Part shown: positions 2 through 21,335 of the stretch, piece after piece
How the letters are laid out: the number at the start of each line of letters is the position of its first letter
How positions within the stretch are numbered: the stretch's first letter is position 1
Origin: Planctomycetota bacterium
GTDB lineage: Bacteria; Planctomycetota; JAJSAM01; JAJVHW01
DNA: 64,000 nt
Assembly (NCBI GenBank): GCA_965248445.1
Contig: CBDFJG010000003.1
Span: 1,632,001-1,696,000 of the forward strand
Direction of reading: 5' to 3'
Made by a program: the position numbers and the translations under genes
Notes under the pieces: generated by a model
Told to the model about the DNA's origin: nothing
The model's database searches: none
The model's input: only the letters and a program-made list of their open reading frames with translations

Positions 2-175
2 TGCCCCTGGTGCGAGAGCCGGATCGAAGTGGCGATCGAGGACACGTACGCGGGCCTTCACGCCGCTCCGAGCCTTCTCGGCTGGGCCTGGGACATGCAC
101 GTCGTGGAGTACCACGGGATGAAGCCGAAGCGAGAGCGTAGGACCTGGCCGTGGGAGGAGGAGCCGTGTGGCTGA
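2..175 (+). CDS. 3' end of a hypothetical phage protein (partial at window edge)
   Basis: Open frame CPWCESR...HGMKPKRERRTWPWEEEPCG* ends at TGA 173-175 and overlaps the methyltransferase start. Confidence 0.5.
   Translation, partial: CPWCESRIEVAIEDTYAGLHAAPSLLGWAWDMHVVEYHGMKPKRERRTWPWEEEPCG
112..158 (+). repeat. Imperfect direct repeat, copy 1 (upstream of C5 methyltransferase)
   Basis: CCACGGGATGAAGCCGAAGC...AGGACCTGGCCGTGGGAGG matches 1396-1445. Confidence 0.85.
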
Positions 176-1406
176 TCCCCTCCGCGTGTTGTCGCTCTTC
201 TCCGGTATCGGCGGGCTCGACCTCGGGTTCCACGCCGCCGCCCGACGAGTGGATGTCGCTCCTGTCGCAGTCGGCTACGTGGAACGGGAAGCACTCTGCG
301 CCGCGGTACTGGCGTGCGCGATGGAGGTCGGCGACCTGGCTCCGGCGCCTCTGTTCGTCGGTGACGTTCGAGAGTTCCCTGCCGAGGATCTGGCGAGGGC
401 GGTGGACGTCGTCCTCGCCGGCTTCCCCTGCCCGCCCGTCTCCGCCGCCGGGAAGCGCGGGGGCATCGACGACGAGCGGTGGCTCTGGCCCGAGGTTGTC
501 CGCGTGGCTCGAGAGTCTCGGGCTCGCTACATCGCCATCGAAAACCCCGTCGGCATCCTCACGTCCAACGGGGGGCGGGAGTGGGCGGCGGTCCTCGGCT
601 CGCTGGCCGAAGGCGGGTTCTCTGCGGAATGCACGAGTGTCTCCGCGTCGGATGTCGGAGCGCCGCACGGTCGCGCCCGGGTCTTCCTTCTGGCCCACGC
701 CCAGGACGATCAGCGGTGGACCGGAGAGCGCGGAGAGGAAACAGGAACTCGGGCGATCGAACGCGGGCGGCGGGGATCTCCAAGCGGCGGTGTTGCTCTG
801 GCCGACGCCCAGGTCCTCCGACGGGCCGAAGGGCGGCCCGAACCAGCGGGGGAGCAGCGGGGACCTGATGCTGCCGAGTGCGGCGATGGCGTGGCCGACG
901 CCCCGTGCGAACGAGCGGAACCAGAGCAACTCGCAGGATGCGGGCGTGGCCTTGAGCCGAGCCGTGAACGACTGGCCGACGCCGGGAGCAGCCGACGCCA
1001 AACAGGTCAAGGCGCACAAGGGTGGGAACCCGTCGCTCCACCACGCAGCGTCGTTGTGGCCGACACCGAGCGCGAACGACCACAAGGGCTCGTATCGCCC
1101 GGGCCAGCGCCGCGGCCAACTGAGCGAGGCGGTGGAGACTGGCCCCTGCCCTGGCCTCCCGGCTTCCGAGGAGACGACGACCGATGGGCTGCTGTTCTCG
1201 GCCATCGCCCTGACCTCGCACCCCGTCTGCCGACTGTCGCCGCGCTTTGTGACCTGGCTCCAGGGGTTCCCCCCGGGTTGGTGCGAGCCGTGGAGCAGGC
1301 CATGAGCGACCGCACGTTGAAGCTCCGGGCTCTGGGGAACGCCATCGCGCCAGCGCAGGCAGAGGCGGCGTTCCTTGAGCTTCTGTCTCGGGGGTCCACG
1401 GGATGA
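168..1406 (+). CDS. DNA (cytosine-5)-methyltransferase, main (alpha) frame
   Basis: Motif I LSLFSGIGGLDLG, motif IV AGFPC, motif VI IENP, motif VIII HGRARVF, motif X LRALGNAI. No motif IX in this frame. GGAGG RBS upstream. Confidence 0.93.
   Translation: MADPLRVLSLFSGIGGLDLGFHAAARRVDVAPVAVGYVEREALCAAVLACAMEVGDLAPAPLFVGDVREFPAEDLARAVDVVLAGFPCPPVSAAGKRGGIDDERWLWPEVVRVARESRARYIAIENPVGILTSNGGREWAAVLGSLAEGGFSAECTSVSASDVGAPHGRARVFLLAHAQDDQRWTGERGEETGTRAIERGRRGSPSGGVALADAQVLRRAEGRPEPAGEQRGPDAAECGDGVADAPCERAEPEQLAGCGRGLEPSRERLADAGSSRRQTGQGAQGWEPVAPPRSVVVADTERERPQGLVSPGPAPRPTERGGGDWPLPWPPGFRGDDDRWAAVLGHRPDLAPRLPTVAALCDLAPGVPPGLVRAVEQAMSDRTLKLRALGNAIAPAQAEAAFLELLSRGSTG
652..1305 (+). CDS. Overlapping-frame (beta-like) methyltransferase polypeptide with WPTP repeats and motif IX; start uncertain (frame open from 151)
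   Basis: Five WPTP repeats followed by RLSPRFVTWLQGFP, which matches the C5-MTase motif IX consensus RxLTxRExxRLQGFP. Confidence 0.7.
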   Translation: MSERRTVAPGSSFWPTPRTISGGPESAERKQELGRSNAGGGDLQAAVLLWPTPRSSDGPKGGPNQRGSSGDLMLPSAAMAWPTPRANERNQSNSQDAGVALSRAVNDWPTPGAADAKQVKAHKGGNPSLHHAASLWPTPSANDHKGSYRPGQRRGQLSEAVETGPCPGLPASEETTTDGLLFSAIALTSHPVCRLSPRFVTWLQGFPPGWCEPWSRP

Positions 1407-1445
1407 AGGCGAAGCCGGAGCCCCGCAGGACCTGGCCGTGGGAGG
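1396..1445 (+). repeat. Imperfect direct repeat, copy 2 (downstream of C5 methyltransferase)
   Basis: CCACGGGATGAAGGCGAAGC...AGGACCTGGCCGTGGGAGG matches 112-158. Confidence 0.85.
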
Positions 1446-1452
1446 GACGCCG

Positions 1453-2932
1453 ATGAGCGGAGACCTTCGCCGGCCATGGTGCTGCGTCGAGCCGCGGTGC
1501 ACCGCCATCCACCAGCTCGCGAACCGCTCCGACCTGAGCGACGCGCGTCCAGGGGACTCGTTCGCCTGCTTTGGGATCATGCCCCAGCAGATCGTCTTCA
1601 CCTACGACGGCGACCGGCACGAGAACGACCTCCGCTCGTGCGTCTACACACCGCTCAAGGGCATGGTGGCGTGGCAGGAGAACGCCAACGACTGGGCGAT
1701 GATGCGGGACGCCTACACGGCGGCGCTCGCCAAGCTGGAGGACGGTTCGCCGGGGCGTGCCCATCCACCTGAGCCGGACAATCTGTGCGGGTGCGGCGCT
1801 CCGACCAACCCTCGATACGGGTGCGTGGTCTGCGGCGGAACGGGCGAGGTGCCGTCCGGCATCGGGAGCCACTCGGGAGAGCGCCGCGTGACCACCACCC
1901 GCATCCTGGTGGGCGACGTGCTCGACCGCCTCTCGGAGATCCCCGAGTCGTCGATCCACTGTGTTGTCACGTCCCCTCCCTACTGGGGCCTCCGGGACTA
2001 CGGCGTAGAGGGCCAGATCGGTCTGGAGGCGACGCCCGAGGAGTACGTGGAACGGATGGTGGCGGTGTTTCGGGAGGTCCGGCGTGTCCTGCGGGATGAC
2101 GGGACGCTCTGGCTGAATCTCGGGGACTCGTACGCTGGCGCTCGGCGCGGTCCGGAAGGCGACCTGTCCACCCTTCAGGGCAGCCGGAGCTCCCAGGCGG
2201 AGTCGCGCCGCGCGCAGCGGGCGATGACCGCCTCCCGCCGGCGCGATGATCATCCGAGCCCGAGGTCCGACGTCGATGTCGCTGGACTCAAGCCGAAGGA
2301 CATGATCGGGATGCCTTGGCGGGTGGCCCGCGCGCTACAGCTCCCGGACCTACAGTGCGTCGGGTGCGAGAAAGAGGCGCCAGGGGTCCTCTGGGGCCGC
2401 CAACCCTCACGGGGAGGCTTGATCTGCCCGACGTGCTACTGCTCCACCGGGAACAGAGTCGTCCGGCCCGGGTGGTGGCTCCGCTCCTGCATCGTCTGGG
2501 CGAAGCGCTCGTGCATGCCGGAGAGCGTGGCCGACCGGCCGACGACGGCGCACGAGTTCATCTTCCTGCTCACCAAGAGCCCCGCGTACTTCTACGACGC
2601 GGACGCCATCCGAGAGCCCGTGTCGGGCACGGCCCACGCGCGCGGGTCCGGCGTCAACCCCAAGGCGCGCGCGAACGGCGCCAACGTGAAGGGCCAGCGG
2701 ATCAAGCAGAACGAGAGCTTCTCCGCCGCGGTGTCGGGACTGGTCTCATCCAGGAACGCCAGGACCGTCTGGACGATCAACTCGCAGGCGTTCCCGGAGG
2801 CGCACTTCGCGACGTTCCCCGAGGAACTTCCGAAGCGGTGCATCAAGGCGGGGACGAGCGATCGGGGGTGCTGCCCTGGGTGCGGAGCGCCGTGGGAACG
2901 GGAGGTGGAGCGCAGCGGCGCGCCTGAGAAAC
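1453..2932 (+). pseudogene. Site-specific N4/N6 DNA methyltransferase (class beta), 3'-truncated by IS3, in frame with an upstream Cys-rich domain
   Basis: ILVGDVLDRL...CVVTSPPYWGLRDY, LWLNLGDSY, HFATFPEEL. The frame runs into the IS3 IR at 2933 before the SAM-binding FxGxG motif. Internal GTG 1888 has a GGAGAG RBS. Confidence 0.85.
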
Positions 2933-2987
2933 TGGAGTTCCCCCGGTTCGGTGGACACCCGACCACTGAGGTTGGGAGGATGTCCAG

Positions 2988-3302
2988 ATGCCCAGATCGA
3001 GACCACCGTACGACGAGGAGTACAAGCGCCAGATCGTCGAGTTGCACCGCGCCGGCCGGAGCGTGATGAGCCTGTGCCGCGAGTTCGAGCCGACGGAGAT
3101 GACGATCCGCAAGTGGATCAAGCAGGCCGCGCTGGACGCCGGAGAGCGTGACGACGGCTTGACCACCGCGGAGCGCGATGAGCTGCGCAAGCTCAGACGA
3201 GATGTGCGCCGGCTGCGCGAGGAGCGCGACATCTTGAAAAAAGCCGCGGCCTGGTTCGCTCGGGAGACGCGCTCGATCCCAGAGAAGGGTTCGGGTTCGT
3301 GA
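2988..3302 (+). CDS. IS3 transposase OrfA
   Basis: YDEEYKRQIVEL HTH and leucine-zipper-like ELRKLRRDVRRLREERDILKKAAAWFA. Confidence 0.92.
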   Translation: MPRSRPPYDEEYKRQIVELHRAGRSVMSLCREFEPTEMTIRKWIKQAALDAGERDDGLTTAERDELRKLRRDVRRLREERDILKKAAAWFARETRSIPEKGSGS

Positions 3303-4156
3303 GCGATCACCAGGCAGAGCACGACGTGGCCACCATGTGTCGGGTCCTCGGCGTCTCGAGGAGCGGGTACTACGCATCGCGCGGCCGTGCGCCCTCGAAG
3401 AGAGATCGCGAGGACGCTGCCCTGACCGAGCGCGTCCGCGAGATCCACGAGCGCTCTCGCCAGACGTACGGATCACCGCGCATCCATGCCGAGCTGCGCT
3501 ACGAGGGCCTCCACATCGGTAGGAAGCGCGTCGAGCGCCTCATGCGCCAGGCTGGGATCGAGGGCGTGAGCCGCCGCAAGAGAGCCAAGACCACGAAGCG
3601 CTCGCAGCGTCAGGCGCCGGCCGCCGACCTGGTCGATCGCGACTTCACGGCCGACGCACCCGATCAGCTCTGGGTGGCCGACATCACGTACGTGCCGACC
3701 TGGACGGGGTTCCTGTACCTGGCGGTCGTCCTCGACGTCTGGAGCCGCCGGATCGTCGGCTGGTCCATGGCCACGACGCTCCACACCAAGATCGTGCTGG
3801 ACGCACTCGAGATGGCCGTGCGCCAGCGCCAGCCCCTCGGAGTCGTCCACCACTCCGACCAGGGCTGCCAGTACACGTCGCTCGCCTTCGGGCGGCGCTG
3901 CAGAGAAGCGGGCGTCAGGCCGTCCATGGGATCGGTCGCAGACGCCTACGACAACGCCATGTGCGAGAGCTTCTTCGCCACGCTCGAGACCGAGTTGATC
4001 GACCGCACCAGCTTTTCGACCAAGTCCGCAGCGCGGTTGGCGGTGTTCGACTTCATCGAGGGCTTCTACAATCCGCAGCGGCGACACTCCTCCATCGAGG
4101 ACCTGTCGCCCATCGAGTTCGAGAGGCGGCGACGGCCGGAGGCCGCCGTATCATAG
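3299..4156 (+). CDS. IS3 transposase OrfB (DDE)
   Basis: WVADITY, HHSDQGCQYTS, DNAMCESFF motifs. Confidence 0.95.
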   Translation: MSDHQAEHDVATMCRVLGVSRSGYYASRGRAPSKRDREDAALTERVREIHERSRQTYGSPRIHAELRYEGLHIGRKRVERLMRQAGIEGVSRRKRAKTTKRSQRQAPAADLVDRDFTADAPDQLWVADITYVPTWTGFLYLAVVLDVWSRRIVGWSMATTLHTKIVLDALEMAVRQRQPLGVVHHSDQGCQYTSLAFGRRCREAGVRPSMGSVADAYDNAMCESFFATLETELIDRTSFSTKSAARLAVFDFIEGFYNPQRRHSSIEDLSPIEFERRRRPEAAVS

Positions 4157-4189
4157 TCCCCGGGTGTCCACCGAACCGGGGGAACTCCA

Positions 4190-4563
4190 AGCAGCGCTTC
4201 GCAATAGACGATGTCGGCGCCCGTATTCGGTCTGTACACGGTCACTCCGTGGCTGTTGGGTGCGTCGGAGAGCCTACGACGCCACCCGCCGTTCTCTATC
4301 ACGGGACCCATCGCCGAGCACTGCGTCGGATTCTCCGTGAGGGTATTCGGCCCATGCGCCGGCAACACGTCCACCTGTCCGCAGACGCCACGACTGCCAG
4401 GCACGTCGGCTCACGACGCGGAGACTCGGTCATCTTGCGTGTCGATGCCGCAAGACTCCACGCGAGCGGAGCTCAGTTCTTCGCGTCTACGAGTGGCGTT
4501 TGGCTCACGGCGAGTGTGCTGCCTGCGTACCTACATGTCCTTGCGGGCGCGGACGCGTCCTAA
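4190..4563 (+). pseudogene. kptA: RNA 2'-phosphotransferase (KptA/Tpt1), C-terminal half only
   Basis: KQRF...IRSVHGHSV, LYHGT, RQHVHLS, VILRVDA motifs. The N-terminal half is missing at the IS3 boundary. Confidence 0.85.
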
Positions 4564-6241: not shown

Positions 6242-7693
6242 TCACTCCCGCGCGAGCAGCTCCGCGGTTCCCACGAGCGCGCCGCGCGCGTGCTCGTCCA
6301 ACCGCTCCCAAGCGACCAGAAGGGCGGCGAGACGCGAGTCGCGGGGAGTCGTCGGACGGCCCTCGCGAGCGCTCCCTCCATCGAGTGGCGTACTGCGCCG
6401 ACGCGACGGCTTGTCGCTCACAGCCGCCGCGTCCGTCCCCGTGGCACGCACGGCCTCGATCTCCGGCTGCGCTCCGACGTCCGGCAACCTCTCGATCGCC
6501 TTCCGATCGTCATCCCGCCCGAGCACCGTGTAGACGTTCGCGGTCAGGACCGGCGTGCTGTGTCGCAGGAGCCGCTGCGCGAGTTGCAGTGCAACGCCGC
6601 CGCGCGCGAGGTTCGTCGCGAACGTCACGCGCAGGCTGTGGAAGTCCACAACGCGGCCGGCGTCGTCCTCGTAGGGGATCTTCGCGACTTCGAGGTCAGC
6701 GCGCAGCATCACAGCGGCGCGGAAGTCCTTCGGGAGCGTGAAGACCCGGGCGGCCGGAAGCCGCTCGCGAACGTGCGTGCGGAGAGCGGCAGCCAGATTG
6801 AGCCGAAGCGGCAGATGCGCCTCGCGGCGGTTCTTCGTGTTCGTCGCACGGACGTTCACGGTGGCGCGATCGATGTCGGCGATGTCCAGGTCGGCGACGT
6901 GGAGGGTCTTCATCTCGTTCCTGCGCAGGCCCGTCTCGGCGGCCATTCGGTAGAGGAGCGCTCGTTCGGGTCCGGGGATGCCGCCCTGGCGCTCGGCTCC
7001 CGTCGATCCATCGCGCGGGAGACCCTCCGCGGTCTTCGCCAGGAGTCGCGCCAGTTCGTCGGCCGTGAGCGCACGTCGCTTCTGCGTGCTCTGGACGTCG
7101 AGTGGTCTGAGCACTCGGAGCGGGTCCTCGCTCGCGAACGCCGTGCGCACCGCCCAGCGACTGAACTGCCGGACGGCCTGCAGGTGGAAGTTGCTCGGGC
7201 TCGGGCTGACCCCGCCCTCGCGTTCGCGTTCGGTCTGGAGGAACTGCTCGACGTGCGTGGCGTCGATCTCGCTCCAGTAGTCGGCACCGATGCCGGACAG
7301 CACTTTCCTCGCCCGGCTTGTCACCAGCCGGACGTGGCCCTCGGTGTTGCCGCGCGCCCGCAGGTGTGCCTCCCAGTCGTCGAGCAGTTCGCCGAGCGGC
7401 CGGAGGGCCGCGACCTGCGTGGCTGTCAGCATCCCGCAGTCGGACAGCCGGTCCCGGAGCGCTGGAGCCAGATCCTCGATCCAGCGCCGCATCTCCTCGT
7501 CGGGCGTGGCTGCTGTGGCTCGGAGTGCGGCGAGCCGCTTGAGCTTGCGTTCGAACTCCCGTGACGCCGGGCGGTCCGCGAAGCCGGGGAACCGCTGGCG
7601 CCGACCGAGGTGGTCCTTGAACTCCACATGCCAGCGCTTGGTGCGGCGCTGCTCGCCGTTCCGGTCGCGGTAGTTCAGGCGGAAGACGCTCAT
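6242..7693 (-). CDS. Tyrosine recombinase/phage integrase
   Basis: TGLRRNE, DFHSLRVTF, LLRHST...TANVY catalytic motifs. Confidence 0.95.
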   Translation of the reverse strand: MSVFRLNYRDRNGEQRRTKRWHVEFKDHLGRRQRFPGFADRPASREFERKLKRLAALRATAATPDEEMRRWIEDLAPALRDRLSDCGMLTATQVAALRPLGELLDDWEAHLRARGNTEGHVRLVTSRARKVLSGIGADYWSEIDATHVEQFLQTEREREGGVSPSPSNFHLQAVRQFSRWAVRTAFASEDPLRVLRPLDVQSTQKRRALTADELARLLAKTAEGLPRDGSTGAERQGGIPGPERALLYRMAAETGLRRNEMKTLHVADLDIADIDRATVNVRATNTKNRREAHLPLRLNLAAALRTHVRERLPAARVFTLPKDFRAAVMLRADLEVAKIPYEDDAGRVVDFHSLRVTFATNLARGGVALQLAQRLLRHSTPVLTANVYTVLGRDDDRKAIERLPDVGAQPEIEAVRATGTDAAAVSDKPSRRRSTPLDGGSAREGRPTTPRDSRLAALLVAWERLDEHARGALVGTAELLARE

Positions 7694-7953
7694 CGATCAG
7701 ATTCCCACGCGTGGCGTGGAGGGCACCTTCGCTCTACCCAGCGAAGGAGATCAAGTCGTGTCCAACGCCGCAGGCGGCCTATCTGGATCGGGCGCGGAAC
7801 CTCTCCTCGGGCGTCCCAGCGGTAGAAGACCGAACGGGAGATGCCGAGCAGGGCGGCGGTCTGCGCGGCCGAGAGGAGCAGCGGCGCGTCAGCCATTCCC
7901 GCGCCGACTTCGACGTTGGGGTTCGGGGCCTGCTTCTCACGGCGAGTGGTCAC
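7690..7953 (-). CDS. AlpA-like/excisionase HTH regulator
   Basis: LLSAAQTAALLGISRSVFYRW...PRPIQIGRLRRW; stop overlaps the integrase start. Confidence 0.85.
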   Translation of the reverse strand: MTTRREKQAPNPNVEVGAGMADAPLLLSAAQTAALLGISRSVFYRWDARGEVPRPIQIGRLRRWTRLDLLRWVERRCPPRHAWESDR

Positions 7954-8018
7954 GGCGACCTACCGGGCCCGCGCTTCCACCGCCATGTCGGCGGGGTCAA
8001 CTGGGTCGCGGAGAGAGC

Positions 8019-8372
8019 TCACAGGTACCGCTCGAGGTACACGAGCATCGGGACGGTTCGACCGGGGAGTTCGGCGAGGTGCTCCTGACGCGACACCCGC
8101 GGCTCGCGCGTCAGCTCCCAATCGAGGTCGACCGGCAACACCGCCCTCAGCAGTGCGCCGAGGTGTTCGAGCGGTACGCCGCCCTCGGTGGCGTCGACTG
8201 CGTCGTACTGAGCCAGGGAGAAGATCACGTGGAAGTGCCGGTCGCGCATGGCCGGCCGGAGATTGACGCTGGTTTCAACCTCCTCGTCCGAGCCGTGAGC
8301 GGTGGTGGCGACGCCCCCTTTGTCGCCCGTAGGCGCGAGATCGATGAGACGAAGCGCGTCATCTAGCGTCAT
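8019..8372 (-). CDS. Hypothetical protein
   Basis: Co-oriented ORF with a GGAGG RBS. Confidence 0.5.
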   Translation of the reverse strand: MTLDDALRLIDLAPTGDKGGVATTAHGSDEEVETSVNLRPAMRDRHFHVIFSLAQYDAVDATEGGVPLEHLGALLRAVLPVDLDWELTREPRVSRQEHLAELPGRTVPMLVYLERYL

Positions 8373-8526
8373 CGAGGGACCTCCGTTGCGACGCGAACAG
8401 GGAGCGCGTCGCGGGGTTCACTGGCGGCGTCCGACTCGCGCTGAGTGCGACTTCGTGGTTCGCTCGCGACGCGCGGCAGGCCGGTCCGGATGCCGCCGCG
8501 ATAGCGTGAGTTGACGAGGAGTGGCG

Positions 8527-9753
8527 TCACGCTGGCCTCCGCTCGGCCTTCTCGCCCGTGTAGTTCTCCCAGCGGTCGACGCTCACGTCGCACCAGGCGG
8601 GGTCCAGTTCGACGCCCGCGCATCTCCGGCGCGCGCGCGTCGCTGCGATGACCGACGTGCCGCTGCCGAGGAATGGGTCGTAGACCAGGTCGCCCGGCTT
8701 GCCGTGATTTCGCATCGGGCGCTCCATGCACTCGACGGGCTTCTGTGTGCTGTGAGTTGTGCTGCCGGTGTCATCGGCGCGAGCGATGTTCCAGACAGTC
8801 GATTGCTTGCGGTCCCCACACCACGCAGCTGGGCGGCCCTTGCGTACCGCGTACCAACACGGCTCGTGCTGCCAGTGGTAGTGACCGCGGGAGATCTGCA
8901 GCGACGGCTTGGCCCACACGATCCCCGCCCTGATCTGCAGTGAGGCGGAGAGCAGTCCCTCCGCCACGTCCCACGAGTGCAGACTGGCATGCCACACGTA
9001 CGCAACGTCGCCGGGGAACAGTCGGTAGGCAGCACGCCAGTCGGAGCGGTCGTCGTTCAGCACCGCTTCGGTGCGACGGACCGACGAGCCGAGACCACCG
9101 TCGGCGGATGAGCGTGCTCGCCACGCGGGGTCGTACTCCACGCCGTATGGCGGGTCCGTCACCAACTGGAACGGAAGCTCACCATCGAGGACTCGGGCCA
9201 CGTCCTCGGCGTTTGTGGCGTCGCCGCAGAGCAGACGGTGCTCCCCGAGCACCCACAGGTCACCCGGCTTCGTCACGGGATCAACTGGCGGCTCAGGGAC
9301 CTGGTCTGGATCGGTCTCACCCGAGACCGGATCCAATAGCCGTGTGATCTCGGCGTCGGTGAAGCCCGCCACCGAGTGGTCGAAGTCCGGCGCCTGCTGC
9401 AACTCGGCGAGCAGTCGCCCGAGTGCGTCGTCATCCCACCCGGCGAGTTCCGCTGACCGATTCAGCGCGATCCCGAGGGCAGTGGCGTTCAGGTCGTCGA
9501 CGTCCACCTCGACAAGGTCCACGCCGCCCACGCCCATCTCTCGCAGAACGGCGACACGGCCGTTGCCGCCGATCACGCGTCCCGTGGACTTCTGGACAAC
9601 GATTGGCTCGACCTGTCCGAAGCGCTCGAGGCTCGAGCGGATCGCGTTGAGATTGCGGGGATCGTGGGTGCGCGCGTTGGCGGGGTCGAGTGTCAGTTCG
9701 TCGAGTCGACGTCGGACGACTGCGAGCTCGGGGGTGGCGGGGGCGCGGGTCAT
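8527..9753 (-). CDS. ParB-N-domain DNA adenine methyltransferase (phage type)
   Basis: DPANARTH...IGGNGR ParB domain; HRLLCGD, TDPPY, HSTQKPVE, YDPFLGSGT. Start ATG 9753 overlaps the upstream stop. Confidence 0.9.
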   Translation of the reverse strand: MTRAPATPELAVVRRRLDELTLDPANARTHDPRNLNAIRSSLERFGQVEPIVVQKSTGRVIGGNGRVAVLREMGVGGVDLVEVDVDDLNATALGIALNRSAELAGWDDDALGRLLAELQQAPDFDHSVAGFTDAEITRLLDPVSGETDPDQVPEPPVDPVTKPGDLWVLGEHRLLCGDATNAEDVARVLDGELPFQLVTDPPYGVEYDPAWRARSSADGGLGSSVRRTEAVLNDDRSDWRAAYRLFPGDVAYVWHASLHSWDVAEGLLSASLQIRAGIVWAKPSLQISRGHYHWQHEPCWYAVRKGRPAAWCGDRKQSTVWNIARADDTGSTTHSTQKPVECMERPMRNHGKPGDLVYDPFLGSGTSVIAATRARRRCAGVELDPAWCDVSVDRWENYTGEKAERRPA

Positions 9754-9992
9754 CGCTTGAGCTCCTTCAGCTTCCGCGCTGCGAGCGCGTTCATCACCGC
9801 AATGGCCTCGGGAGCGACGCTCCCGTCCTCGCGAACAAGTCCGTGCCGCAGTAGGACGGCGCCGAGCTTCTCGGCCGCGACAATCGGCACGCCGGCGCAG
9901 AGCGCCCACGCGGCGGAGGTGTCCTCATCAGGGCGCTCCTGCATCACCTCCGCAACGTGCGGCCACGCGATCGCGAGCCGCTGCGCGGACAC
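9750..9992 (-). CDS. Hypothetical protein
   Basis: Short ORF whose stop overlaps the ParB-MTase start (ATGA). Confidence 0.55.
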   Translation of the reverse strand: MSAQRLAIAWPHVAEVMQERPDEDTSAAWALCAGVPIVAAEKLGAVLLRHGLVREDGSVAPEAIAVMNALAARKLKELKR

Positions 9993-10047
9993 GTCGCTGG
10001 CAAGGTGTGCGACTGCGATGGCGGTCAGACTGAGTTCGGGAATGCGT

Positions 10048-10542
10048 TCACCTCGCCGAGTGCCTGGTGGCGGGTCCGAGGATGCGCTCCCTTGCGGTGA
10101 GACCGGCGGTCGGGAGCGATGGAGTGGTCGCGCGAACCGTGGTCCGCGCGGACGGAGAGAGCCCGAGTTCTCGAGCAGCTGCGAGCAACTGTGCTCTGGC
10201 CGACGCCGCGAGTTGCGTGTACGGAGACGTGAAACTCCGGCCGTGCGTGTCGATCAGTACGCCGCCCTCGACACGCAGTGCGTACTCGGCTCGGGCGAGT
10301 TGAGACCAGGCGGTGGTGTAGGTCGTCAACACCGCCCGGTCGATCACTTCGAGCAACCCACGCCGAACGAGTTCCGGAACGAGTCGGTCCCACTCCGCGC
10401 GGGCAACGTCATCGAGAAACTCAGGCGGGTCGGGCGCGCCCGGGATCACGGGCGGCTCACTGGGGTTGCTGCGGCACGGTTGGTCCGTTCCACGGAGCCG
10501 CTTCACAGCGGTCGGCAGTGGCTTCGGTCCTCGCTTACCCAC
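10048..10542 (-). CDS. Phage terminase small subunit, P27 family
   Basis: MGKRGPKPLPTAVKRLRG, PPEFLDDVARAEW, ELGLSPSAR. Confidence 0.9.
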   Translation of the reverse strand: MGKRGPKPLPTAVKRLRGTDQPCRSNPSEPPVIPGAPDPPEFLDDVARAEWDRLVPELVRRGLLEVIDRAVLTTYTTAWSQLARAEYALRVEGGVLIDTHGRSFTSPYTQLAASARAQLLAAARELGLSPSARTTVRATTPSLPTAGLTARERILGPATRHSAR

Positions 10543-10614
10543 TATTGAGACCTCCGACGGTCAGGCCGTCGTGTGCGTGCGCGTACGCATGCGCGCCCGC
10601 GCCACGCGCGGGAA

Positions 10615-10712
10615 CTCCGAAACCTGCACGCGCGGGAAGTTGGGTGATCCACCGGTCTACGGGCGCGAGGTGCCAGAGATCAGACCCCCCTCCCCCCCTC
10701 GCCAGGGGGGGC
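10615..10712 (-). other. Candidate cos/packaging site
   Basis: G-run GGGGGGGAGGGGGGTCTGATCTCTGG...GACCGG...CGCGCG directly upstream of a P27-type terS, a layout reminiscent of HK97-like cos regions. Confidence 0.5.
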
Positions 10713-10962
10713 AGCCGGTTGCTGATCGCCTTCAAGTCGGAGGTGTGAGCACGCTCGGCAGCACTCGCCTCCAAGCCGCGGACCAGACGACGCCAGGGAG
10801 ACGGACTCTCGAGTAGTTCACTCGCCGCGCCACATCCGGACGCGGCGAGGAGGAGACTCCAGACTGACCAGTCCTGACGCATGACGCGTCCTGACGCCTC
10901 CGCCGCAAAGCAGCCTTCGCGCGCGCGTTGAGTAACGGTTGTGAAGCACGAGTCATGAGGCG

Positions 10963-12731
10963 TCATGCGTCAGGACTCCTCTCGACGAGTGGGTCGGCGC
11001 GCAGCCTCACTCCCAACCAGAGCCGTGCCTTCTCGGTGCGCTTCTGCCCGAAGCCCCGGTCTCGCAACTCCCGCGCGAACGCCCGACTCCCCAGCGCCTT
11101 CTCGCCTGCGCGCTCAGCGAAGTCCTTGTAGGCGTGGAAGAGCACCGACCCCGCGACGCTGGCGTGTGCGTCCAGCTCGCACGCTGCGAGCAGGAAGGGC
11201 CCAAGTGCGTCCTCGGCGGCCCTGTACTCGGAGGTCGCCCCGGTCACGGCCGATGCCGTCCCGAGGCGGTGTCGCTGGTACGCGAGGCAGCCGCGAACGG
11301 CCCAGGCCAGAATGCCAGGACCCTCCGCCTGCAGTGTCGCCGCAAGGTGCGGATCGGCCCGGTCCCCGAGGAACTGCTCCTTGAACGGCAGGAGCTTCAC
11401 GCGGCGCCACGTGCCGTCGGAACTGTCCCGGATCGACGGCCTATGATTCGTCGAGAGGAACAGCGTGAACTTCGGCTCGAACTCGAAGTGCTCGCCGAAG
11501 AGGAACCTCGCTGTCTGCCTCCCGCCGCCAGTGATCCCCTTGACAGTCGCTTCGTCCAACCGACGGTCGCGTCCGGGCTCCTCGGCTGTCACGATCCGGG
11601 CTGGGGCGAGGCGCGCGAGGTCATTCCGCGGTCGCGAGACGTCGCGTCGGCGGAGGAACGTACTCGCCTCCGCATGGATTGCGTACGTACCAAGCATCCA
11701 CTGCAGGGTCCGTATCAAGACCGTCTTGCCGTTGCTGCCGGCGCCCCATAGCAGGACGATGAGGTGCTCGAGAACGACGCCAAGGAGCGAGTAGCCGACG
11801 AGCCGCTGGAAGTAGCAAATCAGGTCCCCGTCACCCGCAAAGACCTCCATGAGGAACCGCTCGAATCTCGGGGCTGTGGCATCCTGATCGAACGCTACCC
11901 CCGCCTGTCGGGTGATCAGGTCCTCGCGCTGATGCGGCCACAACTTCCCGGTCCGAAGGTCCAGCAGACCATTCGCAACCGAGAGCACCCACGGGTCCGC
12001 GTCGAGTTGGTCGGCCCAACGGTCACTCCGGAACGGCTGGCGGTGAGGTGTAGCGCGGCGGTGAGCGCGCGGTGGCTCTCGGACCGTTGGGCGAACTTGA
12101 GCAACTCGTCCCGCCGGTCCTTGTTGTCGATATCCGCAGCTGCGCGGGACAGCGCTCGCGCGGTGTCCCCGGCGCGGCGCAGTGCGGCGCCGTCTGTGTC
12201 GGTCTCCCACAGGCCACGGTCCTCGCTGTAGACGAGCCACTTTCGCTCCGCGGCGTGGAAGCGCATGTCCGCGCCGTGGACCGCGTGGATGCGTTCCGCG
12301 AATCCGAGCTCCGTGCATGGCGCATTGACGAGGACGGAGGCAGCGTCGCGCCGGTCAGCCGCCGAGGTGACGAGCCTGAGATGGCGCTCCCACTCCCTCA
12401 CCGGAAGGTCGCTCGAGACGAGGCCGGCAACGAGACCGACAGCGTCGGACACACCGCGCTGCCGTAGTTCCTCGGTGACGCGCACAACGTCCGGTGTGCC
12501 ACCGTCCGTAGACGCCCGCAGCGCGTCGTGAAGTCGCCGGCGGAGGTGGTGTGTCTGATGGCTGCGCGAAGTCCGCGCAAGGATGGCCTGAGCCGCCTCG
12601 TTGTCGAGGAAGCACGCCCTCAACAGCGCTGCCTCCGACAGAGCCGGCGCACCCGGTACTTCTGTGCCGGTCAGTAGATCGTGAGCGCCGGCCATCGCCA
12701 CCGCGGCGCCGTTGAGACGGGCGCCCGTCAC
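10963..12731 (-). pseudogene. P4-type D5/SF3 helicase with DnaB-N-like N-terminus, frameshifted near 12015
   Basis: 12731-~12020 carries TELGFAERI (D5_N). The second frame continues ADQLDADPW...NGLLDLRTG, Walker A GAGSNGKT, VKGITGG, STNHRP. Confidence 0.82.
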
Positions 12732-12991
12732 GACGGCTCCGCGACTGTCTCGGGTCGTCCACCGTCGGGACACCCTGCAACGTCTGCCAGCAACTCCGCG
12801 ACCGCTTCCCGAGGGACGCGCACGTGCGCGCCTGGTCCGTGGCCGAGTTTCACAGCGCGAAGGCGACCCGCGGCGATGTAGCGCTTGACCGTTCGCGGGT
12901 CGACGTTGAGGGCGCGCGCGACCTGAGCTACGCGTGCCAGTGGTGGGAGATCGAGTTGCAGGCGTCTGTCCGGGCGATGCATGACCGACAT
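12728..12991 (-). CDS. Excisionase-family HTH DNA-binding protein
   Basis: RVAQVARALNVDPRTVKRYIAAGRLRAVKLG...VRVPREAV. Confidence 0.82.
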   Translation of the reverse strand: MSVMHRPDRRLQLDLPPLARVAQVARALNVDPRTVKRYIAAGRLRAVKLGHGPGAHVRVPREAVAELLADVAGCPDGGRPETVAEPS

Positions 12992-15575: not shown

Positions 15576-18500
15576 TCACCGGCCGAGCAAGCGCGCGGCC
15601 TGGTTCTTCGAGTTCTGGAAGCGCGGCTGCCACTCACCGCTCGCGATCTGCTCGAGCAGCGGGCGCGCCAGGTCGTGGCGGCCGCGGCGACGGAGCAGTT
15701 GGGCGCGGGAGAACAGGATGTCGGCATTGGTCGGCTCGATGTCGAACGCGGTCTCGTAGGCTTTGTCCGCCATGACGTACTCGTTGGTCTGCGCCATGCG
15801 CTGCGCCAGGTTGGTCCAGGGCGCAGCCTCGTTCGGCTTCGCGTCCAGCGGCGTCGTCAGGTAGTCCCACGCGAGCTCGTCCTCGCCGAGCGATGCGAAG
15901 ATCGCCCCGGCCATGTTGCTTGCGCCGGTCGGGTCGTCGTCCAGCGAGCGCCAGCGGTCGGCAACCGTCACGATGCGCGTGCGCACTTCGTCGCCTACCG
16001 ATGCGTCCAGGACGCCGGCCGCGTTCGCGAGCTGCTGGAAGCGGGACATCAGCTGTTGGTACTGCTGCCGCACCTGCTGCAAGTCGATCACATCACCCAG
16101 CCGGCGGTACTCGATGTCGAGCGCCTTCTCGTGGTAGGCGAGGGCGCGCTTTCCGTCACCGGCCTGCTCGGCCAGCGTGGTCGCCAGCGTCCAGAGCGGG
16201 GCGATCTCCGCCGTGTCCTCACGGTCCAGAAGCGGCTCGAGCTCCTCGAGCGCGCGCTGCTGGTTTCCGGTCATCATCCAGTGCTCGACGATCGAGATGC
16301 CGAAGAGCAGTTCACGCCCCTCCGGCAGCTCCTTGCGGGCGTACTCGATCAGTTCGTCCGCCAGCGCGCGGTCGCCGATCTGCGAGCACTGCGTCGCCAG
16401 CAGGGGAACGACGGCGTGGCGCTCGCCTGCGACCATCCGCCGAGCCAGTCCGTGCCAGAGCTCCCGCCACTCGGGCTCGGCGCCGGAGAACGCGTTGCGC
16501 AGACGATGGTCCACGGGCGGGAGGTATCCCTGCTCCAGGACTTCGGCGTGCAGCTTCGCAAGGTCGCTGCGGGCTCGCTTCACGAGGTCCGGGTCGCCGG
16601 TCTGCTTGCGTAGGATGGCGGCTTCGTACCGGGAGCGGTAGCGGTCGATCCCGCGCTCCGCGAGTCCGTCGAGCGCATCCGCCAAACGCGCCCGCACATC
16701 CTGCGCACGGCCCCAGTTTTTGAGAACGAGCGCGAGGAAGTACGCGCGTTCGGGGTCCGCCTCGGACTCGATGAGATCCATGACCCTCGCGGTGGCGTGC
16801 GTCTGCTTCTCGGCGTCCTGCGTCGCTCGACCGGACGCGAAGTCCGCCGTCTCGTTGCGCAGACGGGCGAGCCCGGCCAGCCACTGGTCGTCGATCTCGT
16901 CGATGCTCGCAACGCGGCCCGCGTCACGCTGTGCGATCTCCTTGACGTACCAGGCCAGCGCGCTGTCGGGGTGCTCGCGCGTGGGATCGAGCGCCTGCTG
17001 GTCCGGCTTGGACTCGTCGTTGATGGAGTGCGGATTCCACTGCCAGCCTGAGGCGAGGAGGAGCGCGTAGACGCCCAGGCGCCGGTCGTCGTGCTGCACG
17101 AGCTGCTGCTGCAGGAACTGTGACTGCGACCCGAAGCCCCACTGAATCATCTGCGTCACGCCCATGGCGATCCGCTCGTCATCCGTGTAGTGCTTCTGCG
17201 GCTGACTGGCGGCCTTGTCTCCGCCCCGCGTCTTGACGGCCTCGTTCGACCGCTGCTGCAGGAAGTTCCATTCGCGGAACGGGAGCTCGATCACGACGAG
17301 GTCCTCGTCCAGGCACAGGTCGATCGGTGGGTTCCGGCCCGCGACGCGATGAGCGGCGATGTCCACGACGTGCTCGTCCTCGCCGGCCGTCTGCGTTACC
17401 CGAATTCCGTCATCCGTCGAGGTGTAGGCCTCGCTCGCGACGACCTCGCCCTTCTCGTTCTCGTACCGGCGCCCTTCGAAGGCACCGGACTCGCTGAACG
17501 AGAACACCGTCCGTCCGGAGCCGGAGTGCGGTACGACGTGCACAGTTCGGTCATCGACGTAGACCACGTCCGAACCACGAGCGAGTCGCTCGACCGTCGG
17601 GAGCGTCCAGGGCGCCACGTACGCGAGTTCTTCGCGCAGCGCGGACGCCGGGAGCCTGCGTGCCGCGAGACCGGTCGACGGATACGCGTGGATCACATGC
17701 TGCCCGTCGTGGACGACGATCTCCTGAAGACCGTCCGCGTACGTGCGCTCGATGCGGAAGTGGCCGCGGCCGTCGACAACGGCCTTCGTCGCGACACCGT
17801 CGTCCGAACGCAACAGCACTTGCGATCCGCTGGTACGCATCAGCTCGATGATGTCCCGCGCCTTGCGGTCGATCTTGCCCTGCCGCGGCGCGAGAGCCGG
17901 GAGTTCTTGCTCCACGATGTCCCAGACGTCGCTCCAGGAGACGGTCATCGCCGGCATGCGGCCCAGTAGGTCGGAGAAGTACGCCAGGTCCGTCATCGGA
18001 GACGCCTGCTGCAGGAACAGCCCCTGCTGCCACGTGCCGTGGTAGTAGCCCTGCAAACGGTGGCGGATGCGCGCGTCCGATGCGGCTGCCCGCGTCTCGG
18101 CGCTCCGAGTGCCCGCGAATGCCCCGCCCGTCGGTCCGCTCAACGGACGCGGTAGACGCTGCATGCGCATACCCCCGCCGAGGAAGCCGCTCCCGCGGAT
18201 GTTCTTGCCGGCGCTGCGGCGACCGTCGTCGAACCAACGCTCCGCGGACTGCTTGCCGTTCCACCGCTCCCGCTTGCGCCCGATGGGTCCATCGAACGGA
18301 GCGCTCGCCGTGAACCACGGCTCGCCGGGAGGCATGCCCATCGGCATCTCGAGATCCCGCCGCGCGAATTGGTCCGCGAACAGTCCCGACAACGCGTAGT
18401 TCACCTCACTCATCGGTGTCGTGGCGTTCAGGTTGAAGCCGGCACTGGATCTGAGTTGCACCTGGCCCCACGATCGCCGTCCCCACCGCCCCCCGAAGCG

Positions 18501-21335
18501 CCCGTTCTGCGCCTGGGACTCGCGGACGCCCTCCAGTCGGTCGAACACGTTCTCGGTCCGGGTGCGGAACTCTCCGTCACCGTCGGAGTCCGATAGCCAG
18601 CCCCCCTCGTCGAGTCCGTCGTTGAAAAAGGCGCCGCTCAGCCCGTACACGCCGTTCGAGAACGCCACCGTCGTGTCGTAGGCGTTCCTCGTGTAGCCCT
18701 GGCCGTACCAGTTGCTGCCGTCGTGCACCAGCCGAGTCGGCTGGCGCATCAAGACCGTGCGCATCACACGCTCGATGTCGGCGCGCGTGACCGTCCCGTC
18801 AGGCGTCTGCACGACGTCCTGCTGGCCGATGGGCTCGCGCACGACCTCGATGCGGTCGGGTGCGGGGTACATCGCCCAGTGGTCGCTGCGACCGCGATCC
18901 ACGTTGAACTGTTTGTACATCTCCTCGCTCTCGAGAACGAGCAGCGACGTGAGGGGCGACATGACGTACGACGACATGCTGAGCGCAACGATCTCCTTCT
19001 CGTGCTTAGCGGAGTCGTCCGCCACGAGCCGCTCGATCTCGAGACGCGCCCACTGGCGCGGCAGGTAGCCCGCGTCGGCCTGGGCGTTCGCCACCGGGAG
19101 CGTCTTGGCCCACGTCGATCCGTCGCGCACTCCCGAGATCGTCACCGTCTCGGGGAGCGCTCTACCCTTCGGGAGCCGTGCGATTGCCGCGACCTCTGCG
19201 CCGTCGCCGATCGCGTCGGCGAACGACAGGAACGTGAGCTTCTCCGCGTCGTCGACGACGGAGATACTCCGCAGCCCGGGCGCGGCCAGCGTCGCGGCCA
19301 GGTCGAAGGCCCGCCAGTTGATCGGCTCATCGGGCTGGATCTGCGTGACGTGTCCGCCCGTGCGCGCCGCAGCCGCCTTCATGAAGGTCCGCGACCAGCG
19401 CCGGCCGACGGCCACACCGACGTACTTCGCGCGGTCAGGAACCTGCTTCGCCAGCGTTCCGGGGTCCCGTTCGCCGAGCGTCGCTACGCCGCCGCCCAGG
19501 TGGACGATGTAGGGATTGGCGGCCGTCATCGCGAAGTCCGACGCAGCGGCCAGGGCCTTCTCGAGGTCAAGCGCGCCGATCAGGTGCGTTGAGTCCATGA
19601 ACTCGCGCGCAGCGGCGATGTTCTCGGCCGAGAGCGGCAGCAGTGCGTCGGACAGCGCACGAACGCGGGTCCCGGCGGTCAGCACCGTGAACGTATCCCC
19701 GGCCTCCGCATGGTCGAGCAGCGTGCCGACGACGTCCGCCTGCACTCGGGCGAGCAGCGGATCACGGCTGCCGGAGGACTCCACGACGAACACCCAGTCG
19801 CGGCGCTCTCGCCGCTGCGAGCCCGCGAGATGCGGACTGTGGCGCACCATCAGATAGCGGTGCCCATCGTGCTCGACGGTGTCGAACCGGGTCGCGTTGC
19901 GGGCCATGCGCGTGCGGCGCAGCCGCAGCACGACGTCGTCCTTCAGCAGGACGTCGTGCTTGGACTGTGCCACGCGCAGGTCGCCGCCCGCGGTCGTCGC
20001 GGCGAGCGCGTGCGAATCGCACTCCCATGCCGCCGTGGCTCCGCCCGCGACGGTCGCACCGAACGACCAGTCGCCGACGGCGTCGAGCGTGTGCCCGACG
20101 GGGAAGCGGTACTTCGTCTCGCCGTAGAGCGTCTCGAGACGCTGCGTGTAGGAGAGCACAATACGCTTCTCCTCGCGGGGCTCGAGCGGGAACACGCGCA
20201 TCTTGAACGTGCTTCCGTCCACCCATTCGAGGAGCGCAGGATCGCGGCGGCGGGTAACGATCTGCTCGTACACGTTCCGCGCGTGCCTGCGTTCGCTCAT
20301 CCCGCCTTCCATGCGGACGGCGCCCACGTACATCGCGAGACGTGAGAGCGAGGCGTCCGCAGGAAGCGGGAAGTAGAACGTGCCTTCGAGCCGCCACGTG
20401 GCGTGGTTGAAGTACGTCTGGTCAATCGTGGTCCGCGCGAAGCCATCCTCGATGTGAACGTCGACGCTGTACTTGCGGAGCGAGAGGCGTGCCTCCTGGC
20501 CCCACGGGTCGAACGCCACCAGCGCGCCGCCGCCGTAGTCGCTCTTGGGGACAAGCGGGGACTCGGCGGCGGCAACCAGTTCGCGGGTCCACTCGAGGAG
20601 GTGCGAGACACGCGGGGCGCGCTCGACCGTCTGCTCGCCGTCGCGGTCGGTGAAGCGCTCACCCGAGAAGACGGCATTGCGCAGGCCGCTCACGCCGACC
20701 TTGCCGTGCGTCACGACGAGGTCGGTGGCGGCGTCGGCGACCGTCACGCCGAATCGCGTTCCGAGAGCCGTGAAGCGCCGTTCCGGGGTCTTCACGACGA
20801 ACTTGCGGGACGCGTCCGGTCGCACCTCGAGGTAGACCTCGCCCGCACGGACGTCCACACCGCGCGCGCTCGTCACACGAACGTCCGAGCTGCCATTCAC
20901 GTAGAGAACCGAGCCGTCCGGCAGGACGATCCTGCGGCGCTCGTGCGCGCCGGTCTCGATGGCGTCACCGACCGCGACGCGCGTGCTCTCCGGGGCGTCC
21001 CCGCGCGGACGCGGGACCTGGCCGAAGCTGCCGCCGCGAGGCGCGAGGACTCCGGCCGGACCCCGGAACGGGTCGATGTCGACAGGGAGCTCGCCGTCCG
21101 TCCCGGCGACGAAGACCGCCGCCACGAGGCCCGCCGCCGCGGCCATCGCCGTGAGGCGCTGTACCGTCACGGAACGCGACGGGCGGCCGGTCGGGCGCGC
21201 TGAAGCGGCTTCCGCCAGCAAGAGGTCCTCGACCCGCGCGACGAAGTCCGGCGCCGGATCCTCCGGCCGGTAGCTGCGGCTGATGAGGCGCTCCACGTTG
21301 CGGTCGCCGTGCTGGTTCGTGTTGTCGTGCGTCAT
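15576..21335 (-). CDS. Giant putative anti-sigma factor: TM-FecR-VIT-vWA-(LolA/RseB-like)-TPR
   Basis: Short N-terminal domain and TM; FecR-like IVLPDGSVLYVN/ALGTRFGV; VIT ARTTIDQTY...LEGTFYFPLP...DPALLEW...FKMRVFP; vWA FVVESSGS; C-terminal TPRs. Directly downstream of an ECF sigma factor. Confidence 0.82.
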   Translation of the reverse strand: MTHDNTNQHGDRNVERLISRSYRPEDPAPDFVARVEDLLLAEAASARPTGRPSRSVTVQRLTAMAAAAGLVAAVFVAGTDGELPVDIDPFRGPAGVLAPRGGSFGQVPRPRGDAPESTRVAVGDAIETGAHERRRIVLPDGSVLYVNGSSDVRVTSARGVDVRAGEVYLEVRPDASRKFVVKTPERRFTALGTRFGVTVADAATDLVVTHGKVGVSGLRNAVFSGERFTDRDGEQTVERAPRVSHLLEWTRELVAAAESPLVPKSDYGGGALVAFDPWGQEARLSLRKYSVDVHIEDGFARTTIDQTYFNHATWRLEGTFYFPLPADASLSRLAMYVGAVRMEGGMSERRHARNVYEQIVTRRRDPALLEWVDGSTFKMRVFPLEPREEKRIVLSYTQRLETLYGETKYRFPVGHTLDAVGDWSFGATVAGGATAAWECDSHALAATTAGGDLRVAQSKHDVLLKDDVVLRLRRTRMARNATRFDTVEHDGHRYLMVRHSPHLAGSQRRERRDWVFVVESSGSRDPLLARVQADVVGTLLDHAEAGDTFTVLTAGTRVRALSDALLPLSAENIAAAREFMDSTHLIGALDLEKALAAASDFAMTAANPYIVHLGGGVATLGERDPGTLAKQVPDRAKYVGVAVGRRWSRTFMKAAAARTGGHVTQIQPDEPINWRAFDLAATLAAPGLRSISVVDDAEKLTFLSFADAIGDGAEVAAIARLPKGRALPETVTISGVRDGSTWAKTLPVANAQADAGYLPRQWARLEIERLVADDSAKHEKEIVALSMSSYVMSPLTSLLVLESEEMYKQFNVDRGRSDHWAMYPAPDRIEVVREPIGQQDVVQTPDGTVTRADIERVMRTVLMRQPTRLVHDGSNWYGQGYTRNAYDTTVAFSNGVYGLSGAFFNDGLDEGGWLSDSDGDGEFRTRTENVFDRLEGVRESQAQNGRFGGRWGRRSWGQVQLRSSAGFNLNATTPMSEVNYALSGLFADQFARRDLEMPMGMPPGEPWFTASAPFDGPIGRKRERWNGKQSAERWFDDGRRSAGKNIRGSGFLGGGMRMQRLPRPLSGPTGGAFAGTRSAETRAAASDARIRHRLQGYYHGTWQQGLFLQQASPMTDLAYFSDLLGRMPAMTVSWSDVWDIVEQELPALAPRQGKIDRKARDIIELMRTSGSQVLLRSDDGVATKAVVDGRGHFRIERTYADGLQEIVVHDGQHVIHAYPSTGLAARRLPASALREELAYVAPWTLPTVERLARGSDVVYVDDRTVHVVPHSGSGRTVFSFSESGAFEGRRYENEKGEVVASEAYTSTDDGIRVTQTAGEDEHVVDIAAHRVAGRNPPIDLCLDEDLVVIELPFREWNFLQQRSNEAVKTRGGDKAASQPQKHYTDDERIAMGVTQMIQWGFGSQSQFLQQQLVQHDDRRLGVYALLLASGWQWNPHSINDESKPDQQALDPTREHPDSALAWYVKEIAQRDAGRVASIDEIDDQWLAGLARLRNETADFASGRATQDAEKQTHATARVMDLIESEADPERAYFLALVLKNWGRAQDVRARLADALDGLAERGIDRYRSRYEAAILRKQTGDPDLVKRARSDLAKLHAEVLEQGYLPPVDHRLRNAFSGAEPEWRELWHGLARRMVAGERHAVVPLLATQCSQIGDRALADELIEYARKELPEGRELLFGISIVEHWMMTGNQQRALEELEPLLDREDTAEIAPLWTLATTLAEQAGDGKRALAYHEKALDIEYRRLGDVIDLQQVRQQYQQLMSRFQQLANAAGVLDASVGDEVRTRIVTVADRWRSLDDDPTGASNMAGAIFASLGEDELAWDYLTTPLDAKPNEAAPWTNLAQRMAQTNEYVMADKAYETAFDIEPTNADILFSRAQLLRRRGRHDLARPLLEQIASGEWQPRFQNSKNQAARLLGR

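Follow-up and report, generated by a model that had tools for sequence, protein, structure and literature searches.

The closest described system is M.EcoHK31I of Escherichia coli (YGGCCR), an α/β cytosine C5-methyltransferase (C5-MTase) whose β chain is encoded wholly inside the α gene in another reading frame. Motifs I–VIII and X are on α and motif IX is on β; association requires the N-terminal part of β, internal starts work, and the TRD has been predicted on α (PMC2836561 and PMC3404938, accessible parts). M.AquI (CYCGRG) is a two-subunit C5-MTase divided in the variable region (PMC3404938, accessible part). The multispecific C5-MTases of Bacillus phages (SPR, H2, phiBssHII) carry tandem TRDs that give several targets, and they are read as anti-restriction enzymes (PMC8936443 and PMC12707154, accessible parts).

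Here we describe a prophage gene of about 1.2 kb that is open in two overlapping frames, found in a 64,000-nt stretch of a Planctomycetota genome (the window). The comparisons that follow hold as far as the accessible parts of those publications describe the enzymes. M.EcoHK31I is the closest known enzyme by its published description rather than by sequence alignment, and its sequence was not found among the annotated matches. The original prediction had drawn this comparison, and it is apt: as in M.EcoHK31I, β is nested in α in another frame, motifs I–VIII and X are on α, and motif IX is on β. Unlike M.EcoHK31I, the gene is a probable phage orphan, no endonuclease having been recognised among the neighbours scanned; its β carries an array of PTP cassettes with selection acting on β over an unconstrained α middle, and β likely starts 2 nt from the α start on one Shine-Dalgarno (SD) sequence. 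The Bacillus phage enzymes are likewise phage orphans with tandem modules in the variable region, but they are single polypeptides with TL-type TRDs, whereas here PTP modules with a putative recognition role lie on an overprinted second chain. As in M.AquI, two chains are predicted, and AquI-like variants with motifs IX and X on the second chain occur in the family; unlike in M.AquI, α keeps motif X and the whole of β is nested. Dual coding of this phage family was not found described in the literature searched, which lay outside most subscription journals and REBASE, nor was it found mentioned in the accessible parts of PMC11954522 and PMC9030533.

Two coding frames in one methyltransferase gene

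The gene and its second frame comprise the following features.

168..1406, + strand: α chain, 412 aa; motifs I–VIII in 168 to about 700, a middle part that shadows β, and motif X at about 1308–1380.
166..1305, + strand: nested β chain in the +1 frame; a start at 166 would give 379 aa.
156..170, + strand: SD sequence AGGAGGAG common to α and β, followed by GTGTG with GTG166 (β) and GTG168 (α), a putative twin start.
1231..1287, + strand: motif IX in the β frame, RLSPRFVTWLQGFPPGW, with a profile match and a model helix.
1302..1305, + strand: ATGA, the β stop overlapping an ATG of the α frame, probably incidental.

On α we found motifs I (198), IV (GFPC with its PC, 420), VI (EN, 540), VIII (PHxRxR with its RxR, 663) and X (LGNA, 1329); these labels follow standard C5-MTase usage and were checked against M.HhaI alignments. 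The catalytic residues C88, E125, R169 and R171 are present, and the Pfam match (PF00145, E 1e-28) is confined to residues 6–182. The prediction of an α frame with these five motifs and without motif IX thus stood in all its coordinates. The middle of α, over the repeats, is poorly constrained and shows no protein-level constraint, so it is unlikely to hold a TRD. α is likely the catalytic chain of one two-chain DNA cytosine methyltransferase.

The β frame (α+1) has no stop from 142 to 1305. Five WPTP codons (691, 799, 892, 973 and 1057) and then RLSPRFVTWLQGFP at 1231 lie in this frame at their predicted positions. No other WPTP cluster occurs in the genome. The predicted second frame, 151–1305, was confirmed as an open frame, though not its start at 151: GTG151 is disfavoured with an SD energy of −4.4 kcal/mol, as against −11.5 at GTG166. 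In the PHROG search α matched phrog_363 and β matched phrog_1008 and phrog_27243, separate families labelled DNA methyltransferase or unknown.

The missing motif IX is on β. It matches the profile of motif IX from homologues that carry motif IX on α, such as P0103 with motifs I–X on one chain, with a probability of 97.7%. The model of P0103 has a C5-MTase fold and is confident in the IX–X region (pLDDT 78.9; Foldseek match to M.HhaI, E 4e-14). The motif IX profile is also in register with M.HhaI 271–307, a match whose score alone is not significant. In the β model the motif IX helix reaches a pLDDT of 83–90. The model is poor overall (pLDDT 59.7, pTM 0.28), so the absence of a fold match in the structure search is uninformative. 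Neither the β sequence nor the β profile gave a meaningful match in the PDB, and none of 128 β sequences matched PF00145. ESM Atlas returned PF00145-labelled viral clusters at 0.87–0.88 for β, a lead that Pfam searches of the 128 β sequences did not support. In the alignment of these 128 sequences, one carries an HNH_3 match and one an AP2 match, probably reflecting an inserted homing endonuclease.

Within the window, the open frames are weak evidence because the DNA is 71% GC: by synonymous resampling, the chance of an open frame was 0.46 between motifs I and IV, 0.30 between IV and VIII, and 0.12 for α across the repeats. The dual-coding claim is therefore carried by the family. Searches for related loci with α gave mostly weak matches. 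β matched 1336 of 2094 candidates and 111 of 50,697 phage records. We classified 413 loci and the window by layout, with some contigs recovered in several searches. The fairest comparison comes from 239 listed loci chosen by the α motif VIII pattern, and among these matches the nested (+1) layout was found in 122 of 150 classifiable loci; 14 others have motif IX on α, seven are AquI-like and seven are of other kinds. The rest were incomplete (87, mostly fetched without flanks) or lacked a core (2). What was treated as a single curiosity in M.EcoHK31I is thus the prevailing layout in a family of methyltransferases common in phages. Four of six annotated phage records have one methyltransferase CDS with the nested ORF unannotated, and two annotate two genes; the likely specificity determinant has thus been invisible in many cases. 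Among 5426 complete E. coli genomes, 69 match the nested-type gene of phage SEN5, and the matches are annotated as DNA cytosine methyltransferase.

Dereplication of 217 complete cores at 80% gave 130, of which 91 are nested. In these 91 genes, chance predicts 185 stops of the +1 frame between motifs IV and VIII, and only four were observed. The corresponding numbers, observed against expected, were 167 against 198 between motifs I and IV, and 329 against 357 in the +2 control frame. No α-frame stop occurs over the repeats in the nested class, by definition of the class. We also compared substitution positions in 113 gene pairs from 152 unique genes. Substitutions peaked at α position 3 in three regions: motifs I–III (0.34), IV–VIII (0.31) and X (0.27). 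Over the repeats the peak was at β position 3 (0.24 versus 0.09), as it was in motif IX (0.23 versus 0.09–0.10). Over the repeats, codon conservation thus shifts into the WPTP frame, as had been anticipated. From just before motif IV on, four-fold sites of α are more constrained (mean 0.39 versus 0.16, uncorrected for kinship), most strongly immediately upstream of motif VIII. These results show that dual coding is real and conserved in the family, and that protein-level selection passes to β over the repeats and motif IX and back to α at motif X. For the family, two chains are very likely on this sequence evidence.

The hairpin, the cassettes and a proposed mechanism

Two elements of β precede motif IX.

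604..663, + strand: hairpin motif of β, WPKAGSLRNARVSP, lying over the α codons of motif VIII and those immediately upstream.
691..1122, + strand: five WPTP cassettes of 27–36 aa, starting at 691, 799, 892, 973 and 1057; the end of unit 5 is approximate.

The hairpin has the family pattern WPxSGxMxNGxxxxLP, and its profile was found in all layouts of the family. It is one of the two confident stretches of the β model (pLDDT 85–90, strands at 75–78 and 81–84), and α third positions are constrained over it. The hairpin is a candidate α-docking element.

The cassettes are distinct tandem modules and occupy the interval from motif VIII to motif IX, the place of TRDs. Across 622 internal units, the median length is 34 aa and the pattern is (W/L)PTPxAxD...L. 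We analysed cassette types in the window gene and in 79 others selected by motif patterns, 80 genes in all. There, 75 of 197 units fell into 28 types common to several genes, and 122 were singletons. Among the 72 pairs with a shared type, 50 have an α identity below 60% and 33 lie at different positions; a shuffled control gave 0 pairs. No two similar units were found inside any one of the 80 genes, and we rejected tandem duplication as the origin of the repeats. In the window each of the five cassettes is a different type. Close matches numbered 47 for unit 1 and 59 for unit 2, but most come from a biased set, the proteins that the window β had itself retrieved. The predicted variable repeat array is therefore an array in the β frame, but its units are different types rather than copies of one repeat. 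Because the cassettes are distinct and unduplicated inside genes, their type and combination are likelier to matter than their number, contrary to the idea that repeat number tunes specificity.

From these patterns the cassettes are probably specificity (target-recognition) modules. We propose a nested-frame two-chain C5-MTase with the β cassettes as predicted recognition modules, a reading that as a whole is more probable than not and the one to prefer. Ribosomes loaded at AGGAGG would start at GTG168 to give α or at GTG166 to give β, so that one AGGAGG for both starts would couple production of the two chains; in relatives without a twin start, β would start from an internal AAGGAG and ATG after motif III. 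β would dock on α through its hairpin and motif IX and rebuild the small domain, and the α middle would loop out as a passive linker. Each cassette would act like a TRD of the multispecific Bacillus phage methyltransferases, in which case the set of cassette types would decide the methylated sites. The resulting methylation would shield phage DNA against restriction by the host. Should the cassettes prove to be recognition modules, the methylation pattern of a phage could be predicted from its cassette types, and the family would hold a natural library of small swappable DNA-recognition modules.

More tentatively, the family may be a large class of phage C5-MTases with an overprinted specificity subunit, a common ribosome-binding site, a conserved hairpin as anchor and cassettes of about 34 residues passed among distant phages, which would give a programmable multi-target anti-restriction enzyme that annotation has overlooked. 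In such a class motifs IX and X would be mobile between frames, and the hairpin and cassettes would stay in +1.

The enzyme may instead have two chains and a low or fixed specificity, with cassettes that serve as a flexible scaffold or clamp DNA non-specifically. This is unlikely, though it has several points in its favour. The cassettes are unstructured, at low confidence, in both the β and the P0103 model, and β lacks a PF00145 or PDB match. The TL consensus P(STCA)PT(ILV)(TASV), as given in the accessible part of PMC2413257, is missed at one position, where the cassettes have P in place of I/L/V; none of 770 units has the consensus, a zero by construction because units were defined by TP, and 610 of the 770 have PTPx[TASV]. 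Among the matches listed, 5 of the 122 nested loci have no unit by the pattern used. Against a scaffold, cassette types are conserved residue by residue in distant genes with their order shuffled, they occupy the place of TRDs, and the unconstrained α middle is an improbable site for one. We therefore retain the cassettes as predicted recognition modules.

Genomic context and state of the window copy

The host genome is 5.4 Mb with 69% GC, the gene is its only C5-MTase match, and β matched in 1 of 40 other related genomes. Upstream are a phage-type nucleoside deoxyribosyltransferase (phrog_12607) and small ORFs; downstream are a 145-aa ORF, an N4/N6 methyltransferase gene running into an IS3 element, a kptA fragment and a second transposase gene. 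We infer that the gene lies in a decayed prophage. It had been called an orphan, and no endonuclease was recognised among the neighbours scanned, though several of these are small ORFs without a family match.

The N4/N6 methyltransferase region (window 1888–4563) covers 1–182 of the 221 positions of the PF01555 profile and meets IS3 at about 2930. On the far side of IS3, an RNA 2'-phosphotransferase gene is represented by its C-terminal part; the rest was probably lost in a deletion. On the opposite strand, 6242–12773 (−) is a second integrated element with a tyrosine integrase, a ParB-fused DNA methyltransferase and a primase in two overlapping ORFs. A 1919-aa ORF at 15576–21335 (−) has no PHROG match.

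The gene is flanked by a direct repeat.

101..158, + strand: left copy of the direct repeat (D2, 37 nt, 78%; D6, 22 nt, 95%).
1385..1445, + strand: right copy of the direct repeat.

In one frame both copies encode HGMK...RRTWPWE, and each ends at the SD sequence of the gene that follows; the 18-nt core occurs only twice in the genome. It is as if the methyltransferase gene had arrived as a cassette between direct repeats.

The window copy may be inactive, given its rare residues, its long branch in a quick tree and the decayed element around it. Motif IV reads PCP where PCQ is near-invariant elsewhere (1 of 91), and motif IX has Q for a near-invariant M. Besides the interrupted N4/N6 methyltransferase gene, more IS elements lie near, and no structural genes were found among the nearby ORFs scanned. 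Still, that the family works as proposed and this copy is a decaying, inactive remnant is rather improbable, since both frames, both starts, the catalytic residues and all five cassettes are intact.

Translation starts and layout variants

The SD energies at the twin start are −11.5 kcal/mol for GTG166 (β) and −12.1 kcal/mol for GTG168 (α). α and β likely use this twin start on one AGGAGG, to judge from the signals in the DNA. Two frames started 2 nt apart on one SD sequence, as inferred here, with selection passing from one to the other and back, would offer a clean bacterial model for the origin and persistence of overlapping genes.

To score twin starts in 90 genes, we counted a +1 ATG or GTG within −11 to +10 nt of the α start. 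The +1 frame is open from the α start in 35 genes, of which 30 have a twin start versus 5 of the 55 others; the +2 control gave 1 of 35 versus 7 of 55. Of the 30 twin-start frames, 29 run on into β, with offsets of −2, +4, −5 and +7. The Fisher p of 1e-13 is overstated, because twin-start genes are largely one clade: in the quick tree the window falls in a 34-row clade in which 31 are open from the α start. The offsets vary across long branches, and some twin starts fall outside this clade. Among the genes whose +1 frame closes early, 33 of 51 have an ATG with a good SD sequence before motif IV versus 12.1 expected, often an AAGGAG and ATG after motif III. As a rule β runs past the beginning of motif X; its stop precedes the motif X core in 25 of the 91 genes.

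A programmed +1 frameshift close to motif VIII, followed by a return or by re-initiation at ATG1302, would give one long product or three pieces, but separate initiation of two chains is the better fit. Assembly by frameshift had been offered as one option, and the ATGA overlap is present in the window copy; variants with the cassettes in frame with the core also exist. The option is nevertheless very improbable. β is open for hundreds of nucleotides upstream of motif VIII, with the constrained hairpin there, and has its own start signals. In most loci α has no stop before motif X, although by chance only about 5 of 91 (about 5%) would be so. Re-initiation at ATGA fares no better, as only 13 of 91 genes have this sequence at the β stop.

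An assembly artefact of two compensating indels, or chance openness, which 71% GC makes common in the window alone, can be dismissed: the same layout recurs in more than 100 other loci spanning 39–72% GC, and Logan contigs of four runs match 1–2005 or 1–2127 without a mismatched letter or gap, an agreement that is not independent because the four runs are one sample, probably the source.

The family also has other layouts, in which the cassettes, IX and X are on one chain with the core, or IX and X are on the second chain. A further 120 loci, mostly of actinobacterial type, included 74 with a core: 42 with motif IX on α, 28 split and 4 without motif IX. In 36 of 37 complete genes with IX on α, we examined the nested ORF by eye. 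Of these 36, 35 have such an ORF in the +1 frame, containing the hairpin motif and in most cases a PTP unit, and the units were confined to the +1 frame in 25. Because these genes keep both the hairpin and the cassette, these are the constant part of β, and motifs IX and X can be on either chain. Actinobacterial-type genes (L417–L495, for example L428, L440 and L461) have motifs I–X on α and keep a nested +1 ORF with the hairpin and up to seven cassettes but without motif IX; this ORF is a candidate recognition-only β.

In AquI-like loci, α ends after motif VIII and the +1 ORF has the cassettes, IX and X. They comprise L035, L036, L080, L093, L095, L130 and 24 of the further 120. Their scatter on the quick tree (seven changes for eight rows) suggests that they arose repeatedly. 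In L038, L449, L489 and L492, the cassettes are divided between the +1 ORF and α within a single gene, the outcome expected if the array had undergone a one-base shift.
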